Notes: generated from the sequence alone by a model not told the origin. A stretch of DNA of 64,000 bases from Dictyostelium discoideum (GCA_000004695.1 CM000155.2:960001-1024000); one strand, 5' to 3'. Counted from the first letter of the stretch, positions 6,638-58,043 are shown. Translations and numbers: made by a program.

Positions 6638-6799
6638 ATGACATCGGTCGATAATTATTTTTTTAACTTTTTTTTAAAAACAAAGTTAAATAATAAATAT
6701 ATAAATGATGATAAAAATATAAATAAAAATAAAAATAAAAATAATAATTTTAATAATTTTAATTTTAATAATATAATTAAAAATGATGATATAATAATA

Positions 6800-6835
<36 letters not shown>

Positions 6836-7169
6836 TATAATGATAATTTATTTTTTAAAGTTTTTAGAAATAAATATTTATTTTATATTATACTAAAACA
6901 TTTAAAAATATATAATAGAGTTTTAAAATATAGTAGATCCAATATATTCAATTCTAAAACTTTAAAACTTTTTAAATATAAAACATATTTAATAGAATTA
7001 ACATATGGACCTTATTCAACTATTGGACCTCCTGGTTTATTTTTTACTGATCAACAACAGGACAATAAAGACAATGAAAAAATTAGCGATAATAATAATA
7101 TTGAAAATTTTAAAAAAATTATTATAAATGATGAAAATAATGATTATAATAAATTAAAAACTTTTAATG

Positions 7170-7252
<83 letters not shown>

Positions 7253-8696
7253 TATTGTTTTGATGAACCAAATGGAATTTATTGTAATGATCCAATACCA
7301 GTTGGTTGTATACCAAATTCTGTAGTAAAATTAATTGTGAATATAAATAAACCAATTTTAAAAGATGTTTTACCAAATTCAATTTTAGAATTAATATTTG
7401 AAGATGAATTTAATCAAAAAATAATTAATGGAACTTTATCAACTCAATTGGAGTTAATTAAATTTGGTAATGATTTTAATCAACCATTTAATTTTGATAA
7501 AAATAATTTTAATTTCTTTCCAAAAAATTTAAAACAAATTTCATTTGGTGATAGTTTTAATCAAAATATTAATAAAGGTTTATTAATTGATTTGAAGATG
7601 TTGGAAACTTTGCAATTTGGATTGGATTTTAATAAAAGTATTGATGGTTTTGGAATTTTACCAGACAGTATTAAAAATTTAATTTTCTCTAAAAAAACTT
7701 ATAAACAATCATTTCATCCATTATTTTTCCCAAAATCATTAATAAATTTAAAAGGTTTTTATTATGATTTACCAATTACTAAAGAATTAGGACTTGTTAA
7801 TAAAACAAATTTAAAATCTTTAATTTTTAGTAACCAATTTATAAATTTTATTGAACCATATTCATTACCATCATCATTGGAAACAATTATATTATCTTCA
7901 AATTTTAATTTACCACTTCATAAAGGTATAATACCATTTGGTGTTTTAAATTTATCATTTGGTAAAAATTGGAATCAACCTTTAAAAAAATTTGATTTAC
8001 CAATTACAATTAAATCATTAAAGTAAAATTATTATTATAAATTTTAAATTATAAATAATTATAATATATATATATATATAAATTTATTAATTTTTTATTT
8101 TTTTTTATTTTTTTTATTTTTTTTTTATAAGATTTTCAAAAGATTTTAATCAATTAATTAATTTTGAAATTTTACCAAAATCATTAGAAATTTTATATTT
8201 TGGTGAGAAATTTAATCAAATGTTAGAACCATTTATATTACCACAATCAATAAATTATTTAAAGATTGGAAAATCATTTAATAAACCATTATTAAAGAAT
8301 TCAATACCAAATAATGTTAAAATTTTAAAATTGGATTGTAATATTTCATTGATATTATCAAAAGAGAATTATATGAATTCAATTCCACCATCAATTACCT
8401 ACTTGAAATTAAGTTTAAATAGTAGTGAATTCACAATGAATACATTTATACCACCAACTGTTAAATCATTAAAACTTGGAAGTAAAGGAAAACAACCATT
8501 AGGTATAATTCCAAAAACTATAAAATCAATTAAATTCTATTATGAATTCAATCAATTATTATCTGAAAATTGTATACCATCAACAGTTGAATCAATTTCA
8601 ACAAATGGTATAAATAATATTCAAAAATTAATTGATTTTGGTTATAAAGTTAATTATAAACCACATGAAAATTTAGATTTTATATTTTTAAAATAA
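6638..8696 (+). CDS. FNIP-repeat-containing protein; two exons, join(6638..8022,8132..8696), 649 aa
   Basis: Repeated units of the form L-P-x-S-L-x-x-L-x-F-G-x-x-F-N-Q-P (FGNDFNQPF, FGDSFNQNI, FGEKFNQML, IGKSFNKPL) define the Dictyostelium FNIP repeat. Exon 1 ends in phase 2 at aa|GTAAAA (8023). The 109-nt intron ends at ttataag (8131). Exon 2 completes the Lys codon and reads FSKDFNQLINFEILPKSLEILYFGEKFNQMLEPF with no stop, joining the track ORFs 6638..8026 and 8220..8696. An (AAAAAT)n repeat lies in the 5' flank at 6552..6630. Confidence 0.75.
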
Positions 8697-8727
8697 TAAT
8701 TATAATAATTTTTAATTTTTAATTTTT

Positions 8728-8758
<31 letters not shown>

Positions 8759-8858
8759 NNNNNNNNNNNNNNNNNNNNNNNNNNNNNNNNNNNNNNNNNN
8801 NNNNNNNNNNNNNNNNNNNNNNNNNNNNNNNNNNNNNNNNNNNNNNNNNNNNNNNNNN
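8759..8858. other. Assembly gap (100 N)
   Basis: Run of n characters. Confidence 1.
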
Positions 8859-8910
8859 AATACCCTTTTTTTTTTTTCCCCAAAACCAATCAAAAAAAAA
8901 AAAAAAAAGG

Positions 8911-8944
8911 TATAATAATAATAATATTAATAATATTAATAATA

Positions 8945-9041
<97 letters not shown>

Positions 9042-12000
9042 AAAATTATTTTGGAAAGTTTTTCATAATAAATATTTATTTAAATCAATTTTAAATTGTT
9101 TGTCATATGATTTTTTACCAATAGTTTATGAAAACAATGAAATAATTAATAATCAAAGTATTAAACCATTATATTCATTACATTGGTTAATATTTAATAA
9201 ATATAAAAAAACAATAAAACATAAAATTTTAAATAATCATTATTTAACAATTAATTTAGTAAAAAATAAAGATATATTTAAAGATTTGTTTTTTTTATTT
9301 TCAACAAATAAAAATAAAGAATATAATTTTGATGATGATGAAGAAGATCAAGATGAAGATAATAAGTTTGAATATTATTTTAACAATAGTAATGATAATC
9401 CAAATAATCCAAATGATAATCCAAATAATCCAAATGAAATTGAAATAAATTTAAAAGATAAAGAAAATGAATTTTATTTAAAATTATTTAAAAATAATAG
9501 AATTTTATTTAATTATTTTAATTTATCAAGTTGTCAAAATAATAGAATTGATGATTTAATTAGATCAGGTAATTTTAAAGCATTAAAAGTATATTTTAAA
9601 ATAAATAAATTAATTCCAAATAAATTTGAAATTGATAAATCGATTAAACGTGGTGAAATTAGAATTGCAATTTGGCTTTTAAAGAGATATCAACAGGTAA
9701 AGGGTAAACCAATGATTAATACATTTAAGTTTTTACAACAATTTGATTTCACTAATCTAATTGATGAAAAACCAACTTTAAAATTACGTCAATTATCTTT
9801 AATACCAATTTTAAATTCAATTTTACCAAATATAACAAAAACAATAAAAATTAATAATCAAATTAATGATATTCAAAATAATAATCCAAAAGAATTAAAT
9901 ATTAAATTATCAACCATTTCATTTCTTTCAAGATTAAAATCAAGATTATTTAATTCAACAACTGGAGTTATAAATGGTATACCATCAAATAAATCTGAAA
10001 ATATTAGTGATGGTAATTGTCCATTATCAATGAATTATAATGTTTGTTGGTTATTAGAATCTTGTAAAACCATAATCTATTTAAATTCATTTTTAAATTT
10101 TAAAGACAACCAAGAATTGGATCCATTATTATTAATTCAACAAAATGAAATACTCTCTAAAATCACTTTTACAAATCAAGAGAAACAAATTAAAATTTTC
10201 GATTTCGATGCAAAGGATGAAAGAGTTTTTAAACTTTTACAATTTTATTCAAAAACTGAACCTTTAAATCAAGCTTTTATAAATTACAAATATCTTTCTC
10301 TTCCTTTTTATTTTTCAAATATTAATTCAATTTCAATTAAGAATAATTCTTTAAATTTAATTGATTATTTAATTTATTCTTTTGAAATTGCAGATTTCAA
10401 TTTATTTAAAGAATCATTAGATTTATTATTAAAATATCCACAACTTGATCCAATTAAATCGTTACAACCAGTTAAATTAAATTTAACACAACTTTATAAT
10501 AAAGAAATTCAATTATTTAAATTTTGTAAAAATGATCAAGAAAGACAACATCTATTCGTTCATCAAATTTCTAATTGCATTAATAATTATCAATCACCTT
10601 ATAAAATACATACAGTTTTCTTCTTTTCAATTATTGTTAAATTTAATAATTTAGAATTAATTCAATTAGCATTTAATATATTACCAAAATCAAAATTAAT
10701 GTTTGAATATATTTCTTCAAATAAATTAAATTCAAAATCTTTTTCTTCTTCTTCTTCTTCTTCTTCTTCTACTAATACTACTAATAATAATAATTCTTCA
10801 AAAACAAATTTATCACCACCATTAAAAATTAAAAAAATTGAAAAAAAAATTGATGACTATGATGATGTTGAAGATAATGATAATAATGATGAAAATATTT
10901 TAATTATAATTTCAAAATATATTGAATCAATTGAAGTTTTAAAATTTATTTATAAAAGATTTAAAGATATTAAACAACATTGGAAAACTGATTATTGGAG
11001 ACAAAATGGTAGAATGGATTTAATTGAAGCCTATGAAAATCTTGTACCATTGGATGTAAAGTTTACATTCTCAATATCTTATTATTCATTTTCAAAGAAT
11101 CATTTAGAATATTTAAGATATGTTTTATCAAAACCAGAAAGATATCAAATTGAAACAACTAAATGTGATATTGCAATTTCAATAGATGAAACTACAACAC
11201 TAAGAGAAATTGAAAATATTAAATTCATCTTAAACAATAGTGGTACTATTAAATATAGAATTTGTGTTTGGTCAAATTTCACAGCTTGTTATGCCGATTT
11301 AATGTTTTGGATTTGGGATAATCGTAAAACCGATATCTTTCCAACCCAAGGTAATGAAAAGAAATTAATCTCTCAAGGTCATACTTTTGATTTAGTCAAT
11401 TATGTAATTGGTTTAAAATCTTTAAATTCAGATTTATTAACTAATAAGAAAATCACTGATTTTAGTGGTTTCTATTCTTCACCTTGGTTTGATTTAATAA
11501 TTTCAAATGGTGATTTGTTTATGTTTAATCAAATTATTGAAAAATATTTTCATGCTACTTTACCTTCGATAAATAATAAGAAAATCAATAAGAATAATAA
11601 TGATGATCTTTCACTTGTTTTAGAATTCATTGAATCAACAATTCAATTTGGAAATAAAAAAATTATTAATTATCTAATCAATAATCATCCAGAATTCTTT
11701 CAATCTTATAAAGAAATCTTAATTAGATTAGTTATAGATTCAGATATTTTTGATACATTTCAATATTTAATAGATTTAAATATTATTAATTTAAAGAAAT
11801 TTAATATTAATCATAATGATTTAAATCTTCTTTATAATCATAATAAAAAATCAACTTTATCCTCAAATATTTTAGAAATTGATGAAGTTGAAGAAAGTGG
11901 TGTATCTGATGATGAAATTATTAATCAATCAATTAATAATCAATTAATTAATAATCATGATTTTGAAAATGATTATTATGATAATATTGATGATGATAAT

Positions 12001-12189
12001 AATAATAATAATAATAATAATAACATTAATAATGATGCTAGCATTAATTACCCTCCCGTCAATGGTATTATTTTTTCTCCAACTGATAACGAAAATATTG
12101 ATATTGCCTCGGAAAATCCTGAAAATTTGGTTATTTTTGAAGATCCACTTGATCAAAAAATTTATCAATACCTCAAATATACGTTTTAG
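8911..12189 (+). CDS. Member A of a three-gene paralogous family with an N-terminal LFWKVF box; 5' end unresolved because of the gap; at least 1090 aa
   Basis: The first in-frame ATG after the gap is at 9100 (MSYDFLP...). The frame is open upstream through an (AAT)n poly-Asn tract (8920..9039) and the motif NEKLFWKVFHNKYLFKSIL (9037..9096). In paralogues B and C this motif directly follows the start region, so the true start must be in or before the gap. The C-terminus is Asn/Asp-rich, with a stop at 12187..12189. Confidence 0.6.
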
Positions 12190-12419: not shown

Positions 12420-12943
12420 TTAATCTCTTTGAATTGGAGCTTGTGATTTAATTCTTGGTGGTGGAAGTGGTGGTGGAACATTATTTATATTTGGAGATGA
12501 TACATATTGTTGAGGTTGATAAATAAAGGATGTGTTTGCAGGATGAGTTGATATAATTCGTTTTGGTGGTGGAGTTGGTGGTGTTGAATTTACAGTGCTA
12601 GAAATACAAAGAAATGATTGACTTCTACTATCTTGATTTGGTTTAGGTGGTCTTGGTGGTGCTTGGTCTAAAGTTGGTTGTTGTTGTTGTTGTGGTGGTG
12701 GTTGTGATAAATCTGGTTGTTGTGGTAAATTTGGTTGTGGTGGTAAATTTGGTTGTGGTGGTAAATTTGGTTGTGGTGGTAAATTTGGTTGTGGTGGTAA
12801 ATTTGGTTGTGGTGGTAAAGTTGGTTGTTGTGGTAAAGTTGGTTGTGGTGGTAATGGTTTTGGTGGTGGGGTTGGTGGTAATTTTTTAGTTGGTGGGGTT
12901 GGTGGTAAAGATTTAGTAGTTGGTTTTGGTGATGAAACATCAC

Positions 12944-13029
<86 letters not shown>

Positions 13030-15716
13030 GTAGTAGTAGTATTGGTATTAGTATTATTAACATTATTTTCAGTAGTTTGAGTAGTTTGTGGTGTTGATAC
13101 AATAACATTTAATTTTGAAGAGGAATTAGTATGTTGAATTGGTTGATTAACTTTAAGAGTACTTGAAGAATTATTTGAAGTAACAAGTGGGTCATGTGTT
13201 ATTGGTTTTAATTCTGGTAAAACTATAGATTCACTTGATTGAGTTGGTGATATTGATCCTTTTGAAGTTGAAGTTGTTGTTGTTGAGGGTATATCTAAAT
13301 TTGTACGAGATTGCATTGGTGAATTTGAAGCTGATGATGACGATGATGAATGTTTATGTTTTTCAACTTTTGCTGGTGAAACATTTGGTGAATTTTGAAT
13401 ATATGATTTACAAAAATCTAATAATGAACTATTACCTGCATTTGATTTTGAAAGCATTGGTGGTCCTGGTGTTAATGTTGAATTTGATGTTGAATTTGAT
13501 GTTGAGGTAGATGTTGAGGTAGATGTTGAGGTAGATGTTGAGGTTGATGTTGAGGTTGATGTTGAGGTTGATGCTGAGGTTGATGTTGATGTTTCAATAA
13601 AAGAAGAAGATGGTGAAGTAGATTTTAAAGAATTTTCTTTATTATATGCAGTATGTGTGGCAATAAAAGATTTATGATTAGTTTGAGGTGGTTGAGGTGG
13701 TTGAGGTGGTTGTTGTAGAGGTTGTTGTAGAGGTTGAAGTTGAGGTTGTTGAGGTTGTTGAGGTTGAGGTTGTGATAATAAAGGTGGTGAAGGATTAACA
13801 GTATTTAATATAACAGGAGTGTTATCAATTTGAATACTTGATAAACCATTAATAATTGGCATATCAGGATTTGAATCATTAATAGAAGAAGAATTATCTT
13901 CACCCTCACTATCAGAGGAAACGTCAGCTAAACTTGCACCATCAGTAAGTGTACCAAATGGTGCTGTTGCTGTTGCTGTTGTTGCTGTAAAGGTTGATGT
14001 AGGTGTAGATAAATTATTACTACTACTAACATTATTTTCATTTGATCTTGAAGAACTAATTGATAAATAATTGTAACAAGTTTTACAAACTCTTGCATCT
14101 TTTTTATATTGATCTAAAGTCCATTTTTGTTCTGAACATTTACCACATACAACATTACCACATCTTCTACAATGATGTCTTCTTCTAATGGTTGTAAATT
14201 TAATAGTACACTCCATACATTGAATTGCTTCGCTATCAGGTATCCAAACTGGTGCTGTTGATACTGTTTCCTCTTCTTTTGGTTTTAAAATATTAATACC
14301 TAATAAATAATAAAAAAATTAAAAGTTAATAATAATAATATATTTTTAAAAATAATATGATATATTTTAATTAAAATAACTACTTCTATATTGTTTATTC
14401 ATTCTTGCAACAGAACCTTCATTACGTAATAAAAAGTTTTGAGCATCACTAAATGAATTCATCCAACTTGATTTTTCTTGTTCAGTATCTGCAATCAATG
14501 TAAATGATTTAATTGGATGAATAAGTTGAAATGAATTTTTATGTTCTAAAAAATAATGAGGTTAATAAATTTAAATAAATGAATTGATAATAAAATAATA
14601 AAAAAAAAAAAAGAAGTGTTAGGGTTGTTTTTTTTTTTTTTTTTTTTTTTTTGTGTGTCTGTTTTTAAAAAATAAAATAAAAAAACTTACTTGTATCATC
14701 TAAATTTGCAATTTTTGTATTTGATAAAGGTAAAAGACGATGAAATTTATAGATTGGATTACCAACAGCAGTATCTATACGATTACCATAAACTAAAGCA
14801 TCACTAAATAAGATGAACCAACGTTTTTTATGATCTTTTCTACAAACTTTAGTTAGAGAACCTTCACGAATAAAAGTACGTAGTGGAGCCAATAATGGTG
14901 GACATTGACCAGTGAAACGTTTTTGAATTGTTAAAATCTTTTCAGAGTTTTGTTTTTCACGAATACTCTCATTGATATGATCGGCGACCAATGCAACGTT
15001 TTCCAATGCTTTTGCCAATGTTGGATAATCACTAAATTCGACCGGTGTCAATTGAATTAAACTTTGTAATAAAAGTTTATACCTTGGAATACGTTGAATC
15101 GGTGTAACCAACAATGAATTCAAATCTAAACCAAACGAATTCTCACTGGTAACTCGTTTAAGAAACATTTGTAAATCTCTACTTTCGTCGGATTTTTGCT
15201 TCAATCTGGCCACTGCTTTATCATAGTTACCACAATACTCTGTATACACTTTCAAATAAGGTGCCATCTTTGTAAATATATCTCCTAAACGTTTATCTTG
15301 ATACCATGTCGTCATTCTATCTTGAATCGACGTCAATAACTCTGTATTCAATGATAATAAATCTTCAATATGTCCAAATATAATTTGAATTGATTTTGGT
15401 GATAATAATGGTGGGTTTATATTTCTTAATGGTTTTAAATAAAACTAAATAAAATAAAAAAATTAAAATATAAAATAAATATTTTTTTTTGACTTTTTTT
15501 TTTTTTTTTTTTATAATAATAAAATAATAATTATTTTTTTTTATACTTTACTTGTACAATGGTTTCTAAATTTCTAACATAAATTTGTTCAGTATCTAAA
15601 ATTTCTTTTGCAACTTTATCTCTATTGGTTTTATTAACCATCATAGTTTTATATCTTTTTCTACCAATCCATGCTTTTATTGTGCTACCTAATATTTCTT
15701 TATTTTTTGTGTCCAT
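12420..15716 (-). CDS. DH-PH-FYVE (FGD/frabin-like) RhoGEF with Pro-rich C-terminus; four exons, complement(join(12420..14299,14384..14545,14691..15444,15552..15716)), about 986 aa
   Basis: Exon 1 starts at ATG 15716 and carries the beginning of the DH domain (KEILDTEQIYVRNLETIVQ), then donor GTAAAG. Exon 2 follows an acceptor tttag at 15445 and carries the rest of the DH domain (LLVTPIQRIPRYKLLLQSL) plus the first half of the PH domain (KRWFILFSDALVYG), ending phase 1 at a|GTAAGT. Exon 3 carries the PH C-terminal helix (FTLIADTEQEKSSWMNSF) and ends phase 1 at a|GTAGTT. Exon 4 carries the FYVE finger (RRRHHCRRCGNVVCGKCS...CKTCY) and long PNLPPQ/PTLPQQ proline repeats. All phases are consistent (0, 1, 1). 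The track shows only fragments 15531..15716, 14665..15351 and 12420..14216. Confidence 0.8.
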
Positions 15717-44991: not shown

Positions 44992-45957
44992 ATGAGTATA
45001 ATTAAATTAATAAATGATAATTCTAATATTAAAGAATTAACAAAAATATTTAATGATTCATTTGCAGATTATGTTTATCCATTATCAGTTACAGAATTAT
45101 CACTTCAACAAAAGATTCAAGGTGATAATGTATCGTTAGATTATTCGATTGGTTTATATAATAAAGAAACCAATGAATTGGAAGGATTTATTTTACATGG
45201 TGTTGATAATTTAGAGAATCCAAAAAGATTATATAATTCAGCAACGGGTGTAATACCAAGTGCAAGAGGGAAATCAGTCGAACGTTGTTATAATTCAATG
45301 ATACCATATTATATTGAAAAAGGTATTGAAAGTATTATATTAGAAGTTGTAACAACCAATAACCGTGCATCAAAAGTTTATGAAAGATGTGGATTTAAAA
45401 TAATTAGTACAATCAACTCTTATAAAGGTTTAATTAATAAAGATTTATTAAAACCATTTTTATATAATCATCAAAGTGGCGATAGTGGTAGCGTTGAAGT
45501 TGACGAAGCCATGAACAATAAAATCAATATTAAAAAATTGGATTGTATAAATGACGATGTGGTTGAATTTTTATCAAGTCAAAATAAAAACTACCCAATG
45601 ATGATACCAACTTGGTCAAATTCAATTAAAGCAATTAAAAGAGAATTTGATTTAGGTTTTAATAAATGTTGGATTGCAACCACAACAGAGAATGATAAAG
45701 TGAATATTATTGGATTTTTATCAGTCAATGATCAAACTTTTAGAATTAGACAATTATTTGTATCACCTGATTACAGAAATAAAAATGTAGCAACCAATTT
45801 AATTCATACAATGGCATTAGAGTTTAATGAAAGTACAACATTTAATTTTGGTATTGATTCAAAATTTGATAATACTATTAATTTCTTTACAAAAAGATTA
45901 GGTTTCGCTTATCTTTTATCAGTTTATGAAATGTTATTAAATTTTGAAAATAAATAA
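44992..45957 (+). CDS. Tandem-GNAT N-acetyltransferase-like protein, 321 aa
   Basis: The true ATG is at 44992 (MSIIKLINDN...). The track's 44854 start lies in T-rich leader in the same frame. There are two acetyltransferase-like halves: IILEVVTTNNRASKVYERCGFKI (motif A/B-like) and RIRQLFVSPDYRNKNVATNLIHTMAL...FFTKRLGFAY. Confidence 0.6.
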   Translation: MSIIKLINDNSNIKELTKIFNDSFADYVYPLSVTELSLQQKIQGDNVSLDYSIGLYNKETNELEGFILHGVDNLENPKRLYNSATGVIPSARGKSVERCYNSMIPYYIEKGIESIILEVVTTNNRASKVYERCGFKIISTINSYKGLINKDLLKPFLYNHQSGDSGSVEVDEAMNNKINIKKLDCINDDVVEFLSSQNKNYPMMIPTWSNSIKAIKREFDLGFNKCWIATTTENDKVNIIGFLSVNDQTFRIRQLFVSPDYRNKNVATNLIHTMALEFNESTTFNFGIDSKFDNTINFFTKRLGFAYLLSVYEMLLNFENK

Positions 45958-46155: not shown

Positions 46156-48876
46156 TCAATATCCAATAGGAATTTCAATATCAATTAAATAACCTTTTGA
46201 AATGAAATAATTAACAAATTTGTGAATTTTTGTTATTTTGGTGTGTAATTGAATATTTCTAGTGACAACACTTTCAATTTTGAAATTTGGATATAAATTA
46301 TTTAAAAGTAATTCACAAAAGGGAATAACGGAATGATTTGATAAATCTAAACGTTTTGTGAGATTATCAACACAATTTAAATCGGTTAATTTTAATAAAC
46401 TGTCAATATTTGTGAATAAACTTTGATATTTGACAATTAAACTTTCATTTGCATTTAAAAGAGATTTATTCCAAAAATCTTTAATTTTAGTTTGAATATT
46501 TGATTTTTCTTCTTGACTATTATTATTTTTGTTATTGTTGTTGTGAAATATTAAAATATGATTAATTAAATTGAAATTTTTTAATAATGATTCTCGATTT
46601 GATACTTTATGGTTAACAATTAAATTTGCCACTGATTGACAAGAACAAAATTTAAAGAATTTTTCAAATGATTTAGAATCCATTGAGGAGTTTAGTGTAT
46701 TTTCAAAAACCTTTAAAGAATAATAAAATACTCTTCCATTTTCCAATTCTTTACAAGATGGACAATTATTATAACTACTACCACTAATACTACTACTATT
46801 ACTACTATTATTACTAATATTTGAAAAAGTTAATTGAATAACTGAACCAACTGTTTGATTTGAAGAATCATTTAATAATTGTTGAATTAATTCCAAATGT
46901 TTCAAAAATAAATCATATCTTTTAATATTAAGGAAATAAAGTAAGTTTGAATTTAATGAATCATTAATATTATAAACCAAATTTGAAAACAAAGCTTTTG
47001 AAGATGGTGGTAATAATGATAAAGTATTTGAAGGTAAAATTGAAATTCTTTCAATTAAACTATCCATTAATTCATTATGATTCATTCCTCTATTACCAAA
47101 AATTCCTTTGCCAAATATTAGATTAAATGTAAAATAGTTTGGATTTAAATATTTTCTAATATCATAACCATCAAATTTATAATCTTTATCTTCAAAGTAA
47201 TGCTTTTTATCGTTGACTGGTTGATCATTAAAAACTGAAGTAATAAATGGAAATTCCATTAAATATTTGGTAAAGTATTGTGATTTAATATTTAAATAAT
47301 GAATTGAATGATAGATAGTATGATGAATTGGTATATTTGCAATTTGAATTAATCTATAAATATATCTAACCCTTTCAATAACTATACCATCTTTTGAAAT
47401 TAATCTTTTAAACATAAAGTTTATAATATCTTCTAAAACCAATAGATAGTGTTCGCTATTGTTGTTACTTGATGTATAATTTCTTTTATAAAGATCAATG
47501 AAAATTTCAATGCATTCAATAAGAGGAATTATATTTGCTGATGATGATTTAAAAAGAATTGGTTTGGATCTTGTATTTTCAAAAACTATAAAATGATAAT
47601 TATTTTTAAATTCATTCCATTTCTCTTTGAATTTTTCTAAATTTGATTCAATTAAATTATATGAATTATGGAATACTAATTTAAATACATGCGAGAATCC
47701 AAAATCTATAGCTCTAACCAAACATTTAAATGTTTCATCAATATGTTGATTGAAATTAATTTTAACTTTTAAAATTTCTAAATAATCATTTGAAGAAGAT
47801 GACGATGATAAAGAAGATGATGAAGAAGATGATTCACTTAAACTACTTGAAGTTTTTGTAATATGATTAACATATCTAAAGAAGTTTTGTGGGGTACCAA
47901 TTTTTGTAAAATTTGTTTTTTCTAAATAATTTGAAAATTTAACAATTTGATTAGCAGTTTCTAAATAAAAATATGGTATTGAATTAATATCAACAATGGA
48001 ATCAATTTGAAAAACTGTTTCATAATCTTGAGTTTTAATGGCTTCATTATAAGGAAACTTATATAACCATTGGAGATATCTAATATATTCTTGATTGTTA
48101 ACAACATTGGGTGGTGGTGGTGATAAAAATTTAAATTTTGGATTATTAATTTCTAATGATCTCTCCATTGCATATTGAACCAATTGATAGGTTTGAAAGT
48201 GAAATGATGATGATCTTTCATTAAATTGATAGAATAGGTCATCCAATGATTGATTTTCAATATTATCAAAAAACCAATCAATAGTTTCTTTATCTTTTAT
48301 TAAGATTTGAAATGATTTTAAATTTAATAGATGATTCCATTTATTTGGCAATATATGTTTGAATCTATTATCCCAACGATTGGTTGATTTTAAAAGATTG
48401 ATTAATTTTTCATAACTCTCTGAATCTTTTACATTTGAAAATATAAAGCTCTTTATTGTATAATCTAAATCTTTGTTTGAAAAGTATCTTTCATCCAATG
48501 ATATATAAAATTCAACAAATTCATAAAATTCATTGAAACTTGTATCCCATTTAAATGTTTTATATCTTAATTCTAATTTTTTAAATAATAATTGATTCTT
48601 AATTAAATCATTAATACTTTTATAATCAATATCAATATTATTATTATTTTCATTATTATCGCCATTATTATATAATGATACTAATGATTTGAATGAATTT
48701 GTATTAAATGATAATAACATCCAATTAAGTAACATTAAAATTTGTGGATTATTTGATAATTCTTTAATTGGTTCTTTATATTGATCTAAATAATTTTGAT
48801 AAAATTTATTGAAATCTTGTTTTGCCAATTGTTTATGAATTTCTTTTATTTTATTTTCTTCATTATCAATAAAACA

Positions 48877-48957
<81 letters not shown>

Positions 48958-50307
48958 GAGATTGTTGTTATTATTATTATCATTAATTATATTTTCAACT
49001 ATATCAATTGATTGATTAGTTGATTGATCAGTGATTTGAGATTTCTTTTGATACTCTTTAAATAGTTTCAAAGAGATAAGAGTACTTTTTGATTTTATTG
49101 ATTTTAATTTTAATAGTGAATATAGTTCTAATTTATTATCTGGTGAAAAAGTTGATAAATCAAATATAGTAGAATTATTTGAAATTAATTCAAATAATTC
49201 TTGACAACTTTCAATCTTTTCATAGGCTAATCTAATTAATTCTTTCTTTATTTCAATTGAAATCATCGATAAATCCTTATTTTTCATTAAAAAATGTAAA
49301 GGTGATGGAATCGATATAATGGTATAAGATCTCATTTGTTTAATTAAAAATTCTATTTGTTTTTCTAATACTATTTTTTGTTGTTGATATTGATTTTCTT
49401 GTTGATTATCTTGTTCTTGTTGTTGTATTTGTTGAAGTACTATTTGTAGTTGCTCCTCCTGTAGAAATGGTTGTTGATTTTGTATTTGTTGTTCTTGTAG
49501 TTGTTGTATTAATTGTTCTTGTTCTTGTTGTTGTTTTTGTTGTGGCATTTTTTGTTGTTGTTGAAATTGTAGTTCTTGTTGTTCTAGTGGTAGTAGATTA
49601 TGATGATGATGCTGTTGTTGTTGTGGTTGATATTGTTTTTGAAGATAATTATATGCAGAAAGGAGAGCTAACAATGAGAATTGTGGTTTATAGCTATTAA
49701 TGGTTGGGTGATGAGTATTATTTAAATTTTCGAAAACTTTCAATAATAATGAATCGGACATAATAAATGAGAATGGTTCATTTATTAAAATATTAAGAAT
49801 CTCTAAATTTGGTTGAGGGTTGATTCTATTATTAAATACAATTGATAATAAATCAAACTCTATTAACTTGTTTCTCTTTAATGTACTAATAGTTTGTAAA
49901 ATTTCTTTAAACATAATACACTCTTCTACTGTATTAACACTAAGATTATCAAACACAGATATCATTTTATTTAAAAATTTACCAATGCCAATTCTATCGA
50001 TTTTAGTGCGTTCAAGTTTGTTTTTCTCTAATTCTAATTTAAATTCTTGTAAACCATTTTTCTTTTCTAAAAAATAGTTGATTGTATATAAATATTTCTT
50101 ATTGAAAGATTCGATATCATTGATATTATCGTCATCAAATTCATTATAATAATTATTATTATTATTATTTAAATAAATATTCTCTTTAACGGGTGTATGA
50201 TATCTATAATCGACCCATTGCGTTGTTTTTAAATCATCCAAAATATAAAGAAATAGAAATTTATTTTTGAATACTTTCCAAAAAAGGATTTCATTGTGAT
50301 CTTCCAT
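46156..50307 (-). CDS. Member B of the LFWKVF-box paralogous family, 1383 aa, single ORF
   Basis: Begins MEDHNEILFWKVFKNKFLFLYIL. It has a poly-Gln/poly-Asn interior encoded by (TTG)n on the plus strand at about 48890..48960, and an Ile/Asn/Lys/Leu-rich helical-repeat-like body. It is divergent from gene C with 409 bp between the two starts. Confidence 0.7.
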
Positions 50308-50314
50308 TTTTTTT

Positions 50315-50349
<35 letters not shown>

Positions 50350-50716
50350 TTATTTATTTGTTTATATATTTAAATGTTTATTATTTGTTATTTATTTGTT
50401 TATTTAAATGACACCAAAATATCAAAGTTTTTTTTTTTGTTTTTTTATGCAGAAAAAAAAAAAAATAAAAAAATAAAAAAATAAAAAAAAATAATAAAAA
50501 TAAATAAAATAAAAAAATTGGAAAAAAAAATGAAATTCAGAGAAAATAAAAATTTTTTATAAAAAAGATATTATTTTTTTTTAAAAAAATTTTTGATTTA
50601 AGATATTTTTTATTTTAACTCAAAAAAATAAAAAAAAATTTAAAAAAAAACCACCCCTTATTTTTTTTTTTTTTTTTCATCACATTAAACCACTGTTGCT
50701 GATTATAAAATATAAA

Positions 50717-50770
50717 ATGAAAGAAGATTTAAATAATAATAATAACAATATTAATAATAATAATAATATT

Positions 50771-50801
<31 letters not shown>

Positions 50802-53122
50802 GTAATGATAATAATAATGATAATAATAATAATGAAATACTATTTTGGAAAGTTTTTCGAAATATTTTTTTGAAATCTAAAATTTTTAAAATAATTATTA
50901 ATAATTCAAAATTTAAAATTGGTATTTATCATTATGATGAAATCAATAAAACAGAGTGGATGATTCAAAATGGTCATTTAAATTTATTATGGGATAAAGT
51001 TGTAATTAAAAAAGAAAAAAGTTTAGTATTTGATTGTACTTTTAAAAAATTAATTGATAAAGTAAATAGAAAATATAAATTAAAAAATGAAGAAATGAAT
51101 ATATATTATCAATATTCAATTTTCAGTGTATTTAAAGATAATTTAGAATTCTTTAGAAACTTATTTACAAACTATCCACAATACTATCAAATACCATACA
51201 CAACCCATGAAGATTTAGTAAGATTCTCTTTAGAATATGATAATATAGCGTTAATAACAATTTTAATTCAAGATTATAATTATAAACCATCATATGAAGT
51301 TCTACAACAATCAATTGAAATTGGGTCAATAAAAGTTGCCAATTATTTATTTAATTATTTTAATAGTAGTAATAATAGTAGTAGTGATATTATGAATGAT
51401 GAAAAACTTTGGAGGATTGTGTTAGACTATAATTCAATTGATGATATTAGAATTTTAAATAAAAGAGTGGATTTTTTTATAAATAAATTGGGATTAAAAG
51501 TACCACAAACATTAAAGATGTCTACATCATCATCATCATCAAAATCAATGATTAGATTATTCAAAATAGATATTTATAGAGAACCAATTGAAACGATAAT
51601 AGATTGTTGTAAAACTGTGATTTATTTAAGAGAATTATTGGAACCATTAATTTCAAATTATGAACCACGTGGGCGATTTAGAATGGTTGATAGTGAATTA
51701 TTGAAATCTTTTAAATGGTTATCAATTGAAGAAATAAATGAAATTAATGCAACGTTTTCAAGTAAAGATAAAGAAAAAATAAGTGGTAAAGTTAATATTG
51801 GCGATGACAGAATTAAAAGGTTATATAATTTATTAATATTATTTTCATCACCTTGTAAAATCCAAGGAAATTATTCATTTTATCGTGCTAAATATTTCAA
51901 ACAATTTAAATTACCCGATTTTCCATGTCATTATTTTGGAAATTTCTCAAACCCAATTGGAAATAACATTTTAATTAATTCAAGCTTTTTTTATTGTGAA
52001 AATGATAAGGAGTCAATATCAGATTATTGTGATAAAGCAATTGAATATATTAGACCATCTGTTAATATTTATTATTCTAGAAGTTTCTCAAGTGATCATT
52101 TAAAAGATATTTTTAAAAGAGAAAATCTATTTTGTAATTGTTTAATTCAAGACCTTCTTAAAGTTAAACAGGTTGAAATTGCTGAAAATTTTATAAGCAA
52201 TATTAACAAAATTTTTCAATTTGAGTTATCTTTCTCGATAAATGTGCAAACTAAAACAAATGTTTCAAAAGAGGTATTTGATTTTATTATTAAACATTAT
52301 TTTAAAGATAAAGATTGTGATTTCATTTTCGATAGTTTAATTGGCACTAAAAGTTTAGCAAAAAGTAATTTCTATTTACTATTTTATTTAAATGAAAACT
52401 ATTCAAATGAGTTTGGAAATTATTTAAAACAAAATTCACATCTACTTTTAGATATATGGTTAAAAATCCCATCAAATGTAAATATTACAGATATTAAATG
52501 GTTGATTGATATCACTAAAAATTCAAAAATCTCAAATTTAAATATTAGAACACCAAGTATTCTTTCAAATTCTTATTTAGAACTAATCGATTATTTAAAT
52601 AATGAAATGAATAAGCCACCAAGTATTCTTTCAAATAGTTCATTACCTTGCTTATTATCAGCTATTCAATATTTGAAAGCAAATGGTAAATTTGAATTTT
52701 CAAAAGAGATTTTAAATTCATTAATTATTGAAACTGGTAATTTTAATAATATTTTCAAATCATTATATAAAGAAATGGTAATTAGAAATGATTTCAATTC
52801 CATATCATTACTTATTGAAAATCAAGAATTTAGTAAAAACAACATTTTCAAAAAGAAATTATTATTGAAAATGGTTGAATATGGTAAAAATGAACTTTTG
52901 GAAAAGACAATTAATATTTTTGAAAAATCAATTAATCAAACTTCTATAATTGTTCTTTTAATGAATGCATTTAGAATTGGTAATATTGACCAACTATTAT
53001 TTTTATCAAAAACATTTAATTATAAAATTTCAAAAAATTTATTTGGTATGATTAAACTTGGTGATTATCTACCATTAACAAATAATAATCATTATTTATA
53101 TCAATATATTAATGATAAATAA
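50717..53122 (+). CDS. Member C of the LFWKVF-box paralogous family, 801 aa
   Basis: The first ATG is at 50717 (MKEDLNNNN...); the track start at 50696 is a TTG. A poly-Asn tract is followed by NEILFWKVFRNIFLKSKIF, the same order as in gene A. Confidence 0.7.
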
Positions 53123-54320: not shown

Positions 54321-56654
54321 ATGAAAGGAAGAGCAAATCCAAAGAATGTTAAACCAACAAGTGGTAAAAAAGTTACAAAAAAGTTAGATAAAGGTGGAAA
54401 AGGAAATAATAAACAACAAAAATTAAAACAACAACAACAAAAACAACAACAACAATTACCAAAAACCAATAACCCAATTTTACATGCACAACAACAACAA
54501 ATTAAAAAAGATTATCAACATAGACCAATTAATATAAAGAAAAAACATGCAAATGATTATAGTAGAGTAAATTCAGATGAACGTTTAGAAGATGTAGATG
54601 ATATTTCATATGAAGAGTATAGACAATCTGAAATCAATACAAAGTTACGTGTTAAAGATCATGTTTTCGAAGGTGGTGATGAATTTGATAATTTTGATAT
54701 TTTAAATTCAGATGATGATTGCTTTGGTGATAATATTTTTGAATTTGATACAGCAGATTATGGAAGTACTGATTTCTTATCAGATGATCAAATCTCTCAA
54801 TTTAAAAGACAATTAAAAAAAGATAATATTTCAAAAGAGTATCATTTAAAAGATCAAAATGATAATAATAATAATAAAAATAAAAAAAAGAATAAAAATA
54901 ATAATGATGATGAAGACGATGATGAAGATGATGAAAATAATAATAAAAATCAAACTAAATTATCAAAAAAAGAAAAAGAAAGAATTAAACAAGAGAAAAG
55001 ATTACAAGAAGCTAAAGAAATTCAATTTAAAGAATTACCACCAATAAAGAAAAGATATTGGAAAGATACAATGAAACAGTTGACAAGTGAAGATCATCGT
55101 GAAATGCGTATTAAAATCAAAGCAAATGTTAGTACAAGTTTCGATGGTCAAGAGATACCAAGACCAATAATAACATTTGAAGATCAAGATTTACCATTGT
55201 CAATGAAAAAGTTTATTGGATTTCTTACAACTAAATATCCATCGATTACAGCACCAACACCAGTTCAATCACAATGTTGGCCAGGTATTTTAAGTGGTCA
55301 AGATATTTTATCGATTGCTCAAACTGGTTCAGGTAAAACATTGGGTTACCTATTACCAGCGATTCCAAACATTTTAGAACATTTACGTCAAAGGAAAATC
55401 AGACGTCAACAAATGACAATGCAAGAGAAATTAGAGAATAAAAAGAAATCAAAGTTATTAAAAAATACAAATATGGGACCAATGGTGTTAATTATCGTAC
55501 CAACTAGAGAATTGGCAAAACAAGTCGAATCATCATGTAAACCATTGCGTTCAAAGTTTAACATTCATTCAATCGCTATCTATGGTGGTGTTGATGCAAA
55601 TGAACAAAAAGATATTCTAGGTCAAGAACATAATGAAATCATCATTGCAACACCGGGTCGTTTGGTTGATTTAATTCAAAGATCAAAGGAAGTCGTTGGT
55701 TTATTGGGTGGTGTTGGTATGTTAATTCTTGATGAAGCCGATAGAATGTTACAATTGGGTTTCGGTGATCAACTTCAAAAGATCTCTGAACAAATTCGTC
55801 CAGATCGTCAAACTCTTATGTTTTCTGCAACTTTTCCACAAACTATGCAAGATGCCGCCAAAAAATGGTTAACAAATCCATTGAAAATTAGAGTTAAATC
55901 AAGTTCAACCAATCAAGGTAGCACCTCAATCATCTCTAAAAATGTTAAACAAGTGGTTAAACCAATCGCTGAAAAAGAGAAATCAAAATATTTAACAACT
56001 TTCATAAACTCAATTATGAAGAAAGAACTATTACTTAGAAATAGAAGTTTAATTTTAATCTTTGTAAATACTATTAAATCGGTTAAACCAATCCTAACTG
56101 TAATCGAGAAAATGTGTGACCAATTTCGTGAAAGAAAATATAAATGTGGTGCAATTCATGGTGATATGAAACAATTTGAAAGAGATTCAGTCATTGATAA
56201 CTTTAAATCTGGTAAAATCTCAATTTTGGTTGCAACTGATATCCTTGGTAGAGGTATTCATATTGGTGGTAATCTTAGATTCGTCATAAACTATGATTTC
56301 CCATCATCCTTGGAACAATATGTACATAGAGTTGGTAGAACTGGTAGACAAGGTAATAAAGGTCATGCTTTAACTCTATTCACTGATACTCCACAAAATA
56401 CTCCAATGGCAAGAGGTTTAATTAAAATTTTAGAAGAATGTAAACAACAAATCTCTCCTGATTTAATTAAATTGGCTGATAATTTTAATGGTATAGTTTC
56501 AAATGAATTTGATTCCATTAAAAAATTATTAGTAAATCAAGAGGATCAAGATGATGAAGAAGAAAATGTTGATCAAGAAATGAATGATATTAATCAAAAT
56601 GATGATGATGATGAAAATAATAATTTTAATTCTGATGATTCGGATAGAGATTAA
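54321..56654 (+). CDS. DEAD-box ATP-dependent RNA helicase (DDX5/DDX17/Dbp2-like core) with Lys/Gln-rich N-terminus and acidic C-terminus, 777 aa
   Basis: Q motif PTPVQSQCWP, motif I AQTGSGKT, Ia PTRELA, II DEAD, III SAT, V ILVATDILGRGIHI, VI HRVGRTGRQG. Single exon with ATG at 54321. Confidence 0.9.
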   Translation: MKGRANPKNVKPTSGKKVTKKLDKGGKGNNKQQKLKQQQQKQQQQLPKTNNPILHAQQQQIKKDYQHRPINIKKKHANDYSRVNSDERLEDVDDISYEEYRQSEINTKLRVKDHVFEGGDEFDNFDILNSDDDCFGDNIFEFDTADYGSTDFLSDDQISQFKRQLKKDNISKEYHLKDQNDNNNNKNKKKNKNNNDDEDDDEDDENNNKNQTKLSKKEKERIKQEKRLQEAKEIQFKELPPIKKRYWKDTMKQLTSEDHREMRIKIKANVSTSFDGQEIPRPIITFEDQDLPLSMKKFIGFLTTKYPSITAPTPVQSQCWPGILSGQDILSIAQTGSGKTLGYLLPAIPNILEHLRQRKIRRQQMTMQEKLENKKKSKLLKNTNMGPMVLIIVPTRELAKQVESSCKPLRSKFNIHSIAIYGGVDANEQKDILGQEHNEIIIATPGRLVDLIQRSKEVVGLLGGVGMLILDEADRMLQLGFGDQLQKISEQIRPDRQTLMFSATFPQTMQDAAKKWLTNPLKIRVKSSSTNQGSTSIISKNVKQVVKPIAEKEKSKYLTTFINSIMKKELLLRNRSLILIFVNTIKSVKPILTVIEKMCDQFRERKYKCGAIHGDMKQFERDSVIDNFKSGKISILVATDILGRGIHIGGNLRFVINYDFPSSLEQYVHRVGRTGRQGNKGHALTLFTDTPQNTPMARGLIKILEECKQQISPDLIKLADNFNGIVSNEFDSIKKLLVNQEDQDDEEENVDQEMNDINQNDDDDENNNFNSDDSDRD

Positions 56655-56885
56655 AATAAATAAAATAAAAAAAAAGAATTATATGATATTTCAGAAAAAA
56701 AAAAAAGATTTTTTTTTTTTTTTTATTGAAATTCCTTTTAACAAAAAAAAAAAAATCATGATTGTTTTTCACGAGAGCTTTCGTCATTTTTTTTTTTTTT
56801 TTTTTTTTTTTTTGATTTTTTTTTTTTTTTTTAATTCATTCCGTTTTATAATTTTTCATTTATTTATTAAAAAAAAAAAAAAAAA

Positions 56886-58043
56886 ATGTTAGAATTAAGA
56901 TTAGGAACTTGGGAACAATTTAAATTAAATACTTATTCAAATTATCCAGAATGGGGTGATTCAATTAATATTGAACATTATTGGGAAAGAGAAAGAGTAT
57001 CAAAAGATTGTGTCACTGGACATAGACCATGGATTTTAGTTGATAGTGAACAACCTGATGAAATTTTAGCATCATGTGAATCATATACTCAAGAATCACC
57101 ATATTGTTTAAAAGGAACCAATGAAATTAAATATGGATTATCAGAATCAATAGCTAGTGTTTTCGTTGAACCAAAACATCGTAATAAAGGTTACGCAACA
57201 AAATTAATGAAACTTATTTATGATAGATTTAAAAATCAAGATAAAAGAATTTTTTGTGAACTCTATTCAGATATCAATCCAATAGTTTATGAGAAATGTG
57301 GTTGGATTCAAAATCCTCCAACTACTTTAAAAATTAATTTAAATGATAATACAACGGTTTCAAAATTTTTAAATTCAATTAATAATAATGACAATCAATT
57401 TGAATTTATAAATGAAAATAATTCAAAACCAGTTACAGAAAGTAATATTGAATTAGTTTTAAAAAAAGGTATTGAACATACTGAAAAAACATTGATTGAA
57501 ATTGCAAATCATAATGAAACTAATTCATCAATTGAATATGTTTTCTCAAAACAATTTACAAAATCCGAATTTTATTGGGAAATTTCTCAAGCTAAACTTT
57601 ATTCAACTATTATTGAAGGCTTTGAAGCTCCAACTGTATTTGGTCATTGTATTTTAAATAAAAAAGTTGATGAATTAAAAGATTTTAATGATGTAAAGAG
57701 TTTTATTGTTTGGACTTTTGATTATAGAGAAAAATGTTTAAAAATTTTAAAATTATTTGCAGATTCAGAATTAGATTTTAAATTTTTATTAAAGAAATCA
57801 TATGATCAAGCTTTAAAATCAAATCTCCAATCAATTTTAGCATGGTGGCCAAAATCTTCAAATGATAAATTTAAAAAAGAATTTGTTGATTCAATTAATC
57901 AAGAAATAATTATTAGAGATGGTTCAATTCCAATGGTTACATCTTGGATTAATTTAAATGGTAATAATAATAATAATAATAATAGCTCAACTGATATTAA
58001 TAAAGGTATTTGGATAAATGTTGAAAAATTTGGTTGGGTATAA
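56886..58043 (+). CDS. Hypothetical protein with possible GNAT-like acyl-CoA N-acyltransferase fold, 385 aa
   Basis: ATG ORF. The only motif-level similarity is SVFVEPKHRNKGYATKLMKLIY, which resembles GNAT motif A (acetyl-CoA binding). The functional call is weak. Confidence 0.45.
   Translation: MLELRLGTWEQFKLNTYSNYPEWGDSINIEHYWERERVSKDCVTGHRPWILVDSEQPDEILASCESYTQESPYCLKGTNEIKYGLSESIASVFVEPKHRNKGYATKLMKLIYDRFKNQDKRIFCELYSDINPIVYEKCGWIQNPPTTLKINLNDNTTVSKFLNSINNNDNQFEFINENNSKPVTESNIELVLKKGIEHTEKTLIEIANHNETNSSIEYVFSKQFTKSEFYWEISQAKLYSTIIEGFEAPTVFGHCILNKKVDELKDFNDVKSFIVWTFDYREKCLKILKLFADSELDFKFLLKKSYDQALKSNLQSILAWWPKSSNDKFKKEFVDSINQEIIIRDGSIPMVTSWINLNGNNNNNNNSSTDINKGIWINVEKFGWV

Follow-up and report, generated by a model that had tools for sequence, protein, structure and literature searches.

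A 64,000-nucleotide stretch of the Dictyostelium discoideum genome (GCA_000004695.1 CM000155.2:960001-1024000, one strand; hereafter the window, in which all positions are counted from the first nucleotide) contains four genes, designated A, B, C and D, which are very probably members of a large, unnamed, Dictyostelia-wide multigene family defined by an N-terminal module. The module spans approximately 75 residues, and an 11-residue box of the form N-E-(I/K)-L-F-W-K-V-F-x-N, found near the N-terminus of genes A, B and C, lies within its first half. It is a real, ancient (Dictyostelia-wide) and uncurated element, and it is portable: it heads proteins with ankyrin repeats, proteins with FNIP leucine-rich repeats (LRRs) and at least two unrelated kinds of degenerate all-helical bodies, termed here the A/C-type and the B-type. 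What these genes define is an uncharacterised lineage-specific family and not a new kind of system.

The module in the four genes of the window

The box was noticed in A, B and C in a reading of the window from its sequence alone (hereafter the sequence-only reading), and the translations of all three genes agree with it. A six-frame motif scan of the window recovered a fourth copy, NLFFKVFRNKYLF, in gene D (match NDNLFFKVFRNKYLF at nucleotide 6848), and thus the earlier count of three box genes was one short. A hidden Markov model of the module, A4, which was built from 103 database proteins, none of them from the window, was searched against the 476 six-frame stop-to-stop segments of the window. 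It recovered all four genes (E=1.8e-16 for C, 2.1e-14 for A, 2.3e-8 for D and 3.4e-6 for B), the next-best segment being at E=0.16. The module is aligned in its entirety in A and C (Table 1), including a second motif of the form K-F-x-x-I-x-S-x-x-W-M-I-x-N-x4-L-L-K-x-K, which is not aligned in B or D. In B the box is followed by an Asn/Asp-rich insertion and the second half of the module is not aligned; the second motif is present in the B-type relatives P0011 and P0017 (P numbers denote proteins of the set retrieved from the databases). The four genes encode the box with differing synonymous codons (Leu TTA/CTA/CTT, Val GTT/GTA, Phe TTT/TTC), and hence its conservation reflects selection acting at the protein level.

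Extent, conservation and phyletic distribution of the module

The box proved to be only part of a longer conserved unit. The consensus of the complete module reads E.LFWKVF.NKYL...IF, then a variable linker, then KF..I.S..WMI.N....LLK.K, with the second motif lying 20-40 residues past the box. The box half by itself has the consensus E-x-L-F-W-K-V-F-x-N-K-Y-L-x-x-x-I-F-x-x-I and comprises two helices, which are usually followed, after the linker, by a helix-turn-helix. The strongest columns in an alignment of 145 sequences are F6 (92%), V9 (88%), N12 (97%), I19 (97%), W52 (77%), L62 (84%) and K65 (95%). In 121 of these 145 proteins the start of the module lies among the first 30 residues, and the median length of the set is ~810 amino acids. 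About 25 of the 145 module matches are shorter than 300 amino acids and contain little beyond the module (e.g. P0005, which is DDB_G0273369, with 102 amino acids, and P0006, P0008, P0009 and P0012); these may represent mini-proteins that stand alone, gene models that were cut short, or fragments of pseudogenes.

An exhaustive profile search over 1.84 billion protein cluster representatives recovered 137 representatives at E<=1e-3, 20 of them at E<=1e-10. Word-indexed protein searches with module alignments returned just 3 and 1 matches as against these 137, and missed even C itself, although an identical protein is on record. All 20 representatives whose source names were looked up are from Dictyostelia, the sampled sources being D. 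discoideum and close relatives, D. purpureum, D. citrinum, D. dimigraforme, Polysphondylium violaceum, Tieghemostelium lacteum and Cavenderia fasciculata. The sampled representatives are labelled as hypothetical or uncharacterised proteins, with a few termed 'ankyrin repeat-containing' in UniRef. About half of them come from the D. discoideum complex, from which it follows that D. discoideum itself probably holds several dozen members, a figure that is an estimate and not a count.

There is no Pfam model for the module, and A, B and C match no Pfam family at E<=1. Neither the string LFWKVF nor a description of the family occurs in any searchable paper. The suggestion of the sequence-only reading that the box marks an uncharacterised lineage-specific expansion is thereby borne out, in that the box is a genuine conserved element of such a family.

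The window has ~20% G+C and the codon and homopolymer style of Dictyostelium, and in a genome of this composition, where Asn, Lys, Ile and Phe codons abound, a box rich in these residues could in principle be a chance or low-complexity artefact. Such an origin is virtually untenable and is refuted by the A4 search of the window together with the profile search: the four window matches lie between E=3e-6 and E=2e-16 as against 0.16 for the next segment, the module occurs in at least 137 database clusters and nearly always at the N-terminus, and Trp and Val occupy fixed positions in the box. The look of genuine chance matches is illustrated by 18 exact matches to a degenerate DNA pattern for FWKVF.NK in viral contigs of IMG/VR, all of which are out of frame or interrupted by stops and show no extension. 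A giant-virus origin of the box was rejected on the same ground.

Bodies and relationships of the family members

The sequence-only reading had described the bodies of A, B and C as weakly similar, which does not hold in general. Pairwise BLASTP among the three proteins aligns nothing but the box. The bodies were then compared by profile-profile alignment (hhalign) with the module removed and with reversed sequences as controls. The bodies of A and C match with a probability of 99.4% (E=4.9e-21 over 373 columns), whereas the body of B gives <=0.3% against those of A and C, not distinguishable from the reversed controls (for B against C the value is 0.08%, equal to the controls). On this comparison A and C, which lie ~41 kb apart, are distant paralogues, while the module is all that the head-to-head neighbours B and C have in common.

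Local phmmer searches against the retrieved set place the four genes in different subfamilies. That of A includes P0086 and P0138 (D. purpureum), and the relatives of C include P0001-P0003, P0023 and P0054 among others, with P0004 also listed as an A/C-type paralogue. The B-type subfamily comprises P0017, P0011 (DDB_G0274845), P0057 and P0013 (full-length phmmer E=3e-44 to 2e-26), and the relative of D is P0113 (DDB_G0286409), likewise an FNIP protein. P0002 was considered as a C orthologue on the basis of synteny and rejected, as it is a paralogue at another locus with actin and adenylate-kinase neighbours.

The head-to-head arrangement of B and C across a short spacer had suggested to the sequence-only reading that the two are a paralogous pair produced by inverted local duplication. 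A recent event of this kind, which would make them close paralogues sharing a bidirectional promoter, gains some plausibility from the 409-bp spacer, from the 11 of 13 identical residues in their boxes, and from the existence of another head-to-head pair of box genes, by which inverted duplication may recur in the family. It is nonetheless highly improbable, for there is no similarity between B and C outside the box by BLASTP or hhalign, their nearest relatives form separate subfamilies and their lengths differ widely (1383 against 801 amino acids). As their bodies lack detectable homology, a recent inverted duplication is not supported, and if the pair was made by duplication at all, then the event was either ancient or copied the 5' module only. 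The spacer is presumed to be a shared 5' region.

Gene D carries seven FNIP repeats (Pfam PF05725, E=2e-32), which Pfam does not detect in A, B or C. Among 55 full-length members searched with Pfam, Ank_2 was found in six (~11%) and FNIP in one. Canonical ankyrin repeats are present in P0068 (Ank_4, 1e-27), P0072, P0087 and P0114, and the ankyrin-bearing members come mostly from genera other than Dictyostelium. In A, B and C Pfam detects no ankyrin repeat (PF00023 or PF12796) at E<=1, and the C family compared with consensus ankyrin reaches an hhalign value of 0.2%. The earlier statement that no domain can be named thus holds for A, B and C, but not for the family, some members of which carry canonical ankyrin repeats. 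Fainter signals were also recovered. Just past the module in B-type relatives there are sub-threshold matches to Ank_2 (P0036, E=0.0037 at 122-198) and Ank_3 (P0057, E=0.06), and hhalign between ankyrin-bearing members and the C-terminal parts of A and C yields weak values of 38% and 6%, as against 0.1% for the reversed controls. The bodies are best described as alpha-solenoids; on the profile comparisons they may be partly ankyrin-derived, but no sign of such an origin was detected for B-type bodies.

AlphaFold modelling of residues 1-225 of C from an 11-sequence alignment gave a structure of helical hairpins (predicted local distance difference test, pLDDT, 72.6; predicted template modelling score, pTM, 0.65). 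In this model the box forms helices at residues 2-10 and 12-23, which are followed by a hairpin-like linker and a helix-turn-helix at 41-58 (41-46 and 50-58), and well-predicted helical hairpins occupy residues 100-180 (pLDDT 85-94). Structural matches to ankyrin are weak.

Genomic adjacency and growth of the family

The family members of the window form two adjacent pairs, D and A in tandem and B and C divergent. A second divergent pair was found at an unrelated D. discoideum locus (L005 6798-12388), where P0004 on the plus strand is accompanied by a neighbour starting MVELLFWKIIRNKYLF. A long AAT run splits the frame of this neighbour into two open reading frames (ORFs), at 8707-9681 and 6798-8813, for which a frameshift, an intron or a pseudogene could account. 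At the P0002 locus the search for an adjacent family member was negative. Given the estimated family size, far fewer than three adjacent pairs would be expected at four loci, and the excess suggests that members arose by local duplication and then diverged very fast. The family would then have grown by local duplication, tandem or inverted, with its bodies diverging fast while the module was held constant.

Predicted function of the module

The module is strictly N-terminal, carries near-invariant polar residues, remains constant while the bodies diverge, and is found on alpha-solenoid as well as LRR scaffolds. On account of these features we consider the chances about even that it serves the diversified repeat bodies as a common means of docking. 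In this role it would be a docking or adaptor element through which the many repeat 'receptor' bodies are coupled to a single partner, following the logic of the F-box, SOCS-box and BTB substrate receptors, with Skp1 of the Skp1-cullin-F-box (SCF) ubiquitin ligase as the candidate partner.

The main alternative, which we regard as possible but distinctly less probable, is that the module is a structural N-terminal cap together with the first hairpin of an ankyrin-derived alpha-solenoid, kept constant for the sake of folding and stability and lacking a partner of its own, the whole family being a degenerate ankyrin-repeat expansion. The module always directly precedes helical repeats, and in the model of C the succession of box helices (2-10, 12-23), loop and helix-turn-helix (41-58) is like an ankyrin unit. 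The canonical repeats of some members can be read in the same way, as can the sub-threshold ankyrin matches after the module in P0036 (E=0.0037) and P0057 (E=0.06) and the weak values of 38% and 6% (controls 0.1%) between the C-terminal parts of A and C and the ankyrin-bearing members. Yet A, B and C themselves lack any Pfam ankyrin signal, with the C family at 0.2% by hhalign against consensus ankyrin, and the module is far better conserved than the repeats that it would stabilise. Near-invariant residues such as N12 (97%) and K65 (95%), along with W7 and W52, would also be unusual in a mere cap. Furthermore, the box heads the FNIP proteins D and P0113, whose repeats form a beta/alpha solenoid on which an ankyrin cap would make no sense, although the counter-weight of these fusions is lessened by their bearing only the first half of the module.

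A different kind of interaction would be implied if the box were a basic amphipathic helix binding calmodulin or membranes. The segment LFWKVFRNKYLFKSIL does fit the 1-5-10 and 1-8-14 spacings of bulky hydrophobic residues with a net positive charge, and by inspection its anchors F/W/V/F/Y/L/I are interleaved with K/R/N/K; moreover, cmbB, a Dictyostelium FNIP (IP22) protein, was reportedly isolated as calmodulin-binding. Motifs of this type tolerate variation, whereas the box is conserved almost residue by residue (N12 in 97%) and goes together with the second motif that lies 20-40 residues past it. Judged from the sequence pattern, this interpretation is improbable.

The family may be compared with three known systems. 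F-box receptors of SCF, in which an F-box is combined with LRR, WD40, Kelch or ankyrin repeats, similarly have a short N-terminal helical module on variable repeat scaffolds that include ankyrin and FNIP/LRR, and they too constitute a large, fast-diverging, lineage-specific expansion. In Megavirus (Mimiviridae), FGxxFN/FNIP proteins bear N-terminal F-boxes (PMC9525666). The module differs from the F-box in having no sequence or profile similarity to it and no LPxE motif. Its portable unit appears to consist of two helices in ~25-30 residues as against three helices in ~45 residues, and the would-be helix 2 of the F-box corresponds to a linker of variable length in the module. The ankyrin proteins (Pfam Ank, Ank_2 and DUF3447, including the degenerate expansions of amoebae and giant viruses) share with the family their all-helical hairpin repeats, and ~11% of the module-bearing representatives have canonical ankyrin repeats, several being so named by UniRef; but all sequence tests for ankyrin were negative in A, B and C, the B-type body shows no relation to ankyrin, and the ankyrin models do not contain the LFWKVF module. 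Finally, D and P0113 join the box with the repeats of the FNIP/FGxxFN (IP22) LRR family of Dictyostelium and giant viruses, whereas A, B and C are without such repeats, and what the FNIP proteins have of the module is limited to its first half (positions 2-45).

The link to Skp1 comes from a study of the Skp1 interactome, in which DDB_G0294633, a protein with an ankyrin body, is listed as co-immunoprecipitating with Skp1 at the slug stage (class 'ps') and was described by the authors as having an 'F-box-like' N-terminus (PMC9485057, Fig. S3). The F-box-like segment printed there (YNNI-SILFSKILSNF-...-SRKYKDIIS-LEWMIN) scores 22.6 bits against A4 (E=5.5e-5 at proteome scale) over module positions 14-55. 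By comparison, none of 20 canonical F-boxes and none of five further candidates shown in that figure exceeds 5.5 bits. DDB_G0294633 is therefore a probable family member that co-purifies with Skp1, a single and indirect proteomic data point. Among the candidate partners only Skp1 has data of any kind behind it and, on this segment match, we propose it tentatively and with low confidence. The broader proposal that the LFWKVF module is a cryptic domain binding Skp1 or another cullin adaptor, and invisible to F-box profiles, appears slightly less likely still.

Several results weigh against these proposals. The module is not detectably an F-box, every comparison being negative: Pfam finds no F-box (PF00646 or PF12937) in the window genes at E<=1; A4 against a 20-sequence F-box alignment gives an hhalign probability of 0.45%; hmmsearch against PDB sequences at E<=10 recovers no F-box or ankyrin chain; and Foldseek yields no match at E<0.8. 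The F-box alignment, with human, yeast, plant and Dictyostelium sequences, was built by hand, in part from a machine reading of PMC9485057 Fig. S3, and is adequate as a profile but uncurated. The full-length model of C is poor (pLDDT 61, pTM 0.41), too low to justify a fold search. DDB_G0294633 is identified from no more than a 40-residue machine-read snippet with its loops removed, and it might just as well have entered the Skp1 pull-down as a substrate or a contaminant. The second half of the module resembles the first helical hairpin of the body, and its conservation may thus be partly structural. The clustering argument is drawn from four loci and from a family size that is estimated, not counted. 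The docking function of A, B, C and D is itself a prediction.

Gene models and other features of the window

The gene models were compared with GCA_054883475.1, a second and independently annotated D. discoideum assembly which is gap-free at A. The features are collected in Table 1.

Table 1. Family genes, their modules and associated features of the window (A4 positions are those of the module profile)
Feature	Position	Strand	Description
Gene D	6638-8696	+	FNIP (FGxxFN leucine-rich) repeat gene, tandem, directly upstream of A
Box of D, first half of module only	6839-6982	+	NDNLFFKVFRNKYLFYIILKHLKIY...; A4 positions 2-45
Assembly gap, 100 N	8759-8858	.	Between D and A
Gene A	8908-12189	+	1093 amino acids in gap-free assembly; frame open from 8911
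Complete module of A	9034-9255	+	NEKLFWKVFHNKYLFKSIL ... LYSLHWLIFNKYKKTIKHK; A4 positions 1-75
Gene B	46156-50307	-	1383 amino acids, single exon; ORF; starts MEDHNEILFWKVFKNKFLF
Module of B, first half only	50179-50295	-	NEILFWKVFKNKFLFLYILDDL...; A4 positions 2-32
B-C spacer	50308-50716	.	409 bp, A/T-rich, intergenic, between divergent genes
Gene C	50717-53122	+	801 amino acids, single exon; ORF; MKEDL, Asn run, then NEILFWKVFRNIFLK
Complete ~75-residue module of C	50828-51037	+	Box, linker, TEWMIQNGHLNLLWDK hairpin; A4 positions 1-76

At the positions of B and C the second assembly has annotated single-exon genes of 1383 (minus strand) and 801 amino acids (plus strand), and the single-exon models of the two genes, along with the coordinates given for them in the sequence-only reading, are accordingly taken as correct. 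The spacer between them measures 408 bp in that assembly. Gene C is identical in both, and gene B differs by 3 nucleotides. The three differences from the other allele (L002) are at 50267, 50229 and 50197, in codons 14, 27 and 37; all are nonsynonymous (K14R, K27E and H37Q) and all fall within a 71-nucleotide stretch of the N-terminal module. The other ~4.0 kb of B, the whole of C and the helicase gene mentioned below are identical between the assemblies. This three-base patch could result from gene conversion by a paralogous box or from errors in one assembly.

The frame of gene A reads (Asn)n-NEKLFWKVFHNKYLF. Its start codon at 8908-8910, ATG in the gap-free assembly, appears as AGG in the window through a T-to-G difference at 8909 which lies 50 nucleotides from the edge of the gap, and in the gap-free assembly the gene starts ATG-TAT-AAT (MYNNNN...) and continues through the box. 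There are no amino-acid differences over 715 comparable downstream residues. Low base quality next to the gap is the probable source of the G at 8909, which removes the annotated start codon of A. The 1093-residue gap-free model, the one complete model that is available for the gene, begins at an upstream ATG and includes the box; in this model the box of A is therefore coding and not part of a 5' untranslated region, the possibility that the sequence-only reading had itself raised as a refutation. The 100-N gap corresponds to ~1.05 kb of intergenic DNA in the gap-free assembly. Gene D is annotated in the second assembly as a gene of 649 amino acids with one intron (the gene call L003 15548-17606, which maps to 6638-8696).

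Elsewhere in the window, a DEAD-box helicase (54321-56654) and a polyubiquitin ORF (1035-1952) are encoded identically in GCA_054883475.1. Two GNAT-type acetyltransferase genes on the same strand (44992-45957 and 56880-58037) flank the block formed by B, C and the helicase. A recent segmental duplication was considered for these two and rejected, their similarity being confined to the GNAT core motif (BLASTP E=0.002 over 20 residues). A long ORF on the minus strand at 12420-14216 starts with a FYVE-like Cys-rich motif (RRRHHCRRCG...CxxC) and continues into extensive low-complexity runs of Ser/Thr, Asn and Pro-Gln. Exact look-ups of B, of this FYVE-like ORF, of the D ORF and of P0005 returned no match. 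As the look-up of the FYVE-like ORF matched no gene product, its true gene model probably has further exons.

Implications

Dictyostelium genomes are full of orphan repeat proteins, and in one recent dictyostelid genome no Pfam class is more abundant than FNIP repeats. The Dictyostelium F-box repertoire has also been described as hard to define (PMC9485057). A module common to FNIP, ankyrin and degenerate helical-repeat proteins provides a handle on such proteins, namely one peptide with which a common partner may be sought across dozens of genes that otherwise resist annotation. At the local level, the gene models are corrected in the start codon of A and by the addition of a fourth family member, D. 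If the module were only a structural cap, the result would still be a clean definition of an uncurated domain family. If, alternatively, the proposed Skp1 binding were true, A, B, C and D together with dozens of other D. discoideum genes would encode E3 ubiquitin-ligase substrate receptors of a hitherto hidden class. That class would be about as large as the set of 83 F-box-like sequences aligned in PMC9485057 Fig. S3, and a function would be assigned to many ankyrin-like and FNIP proteins that are now orphans.

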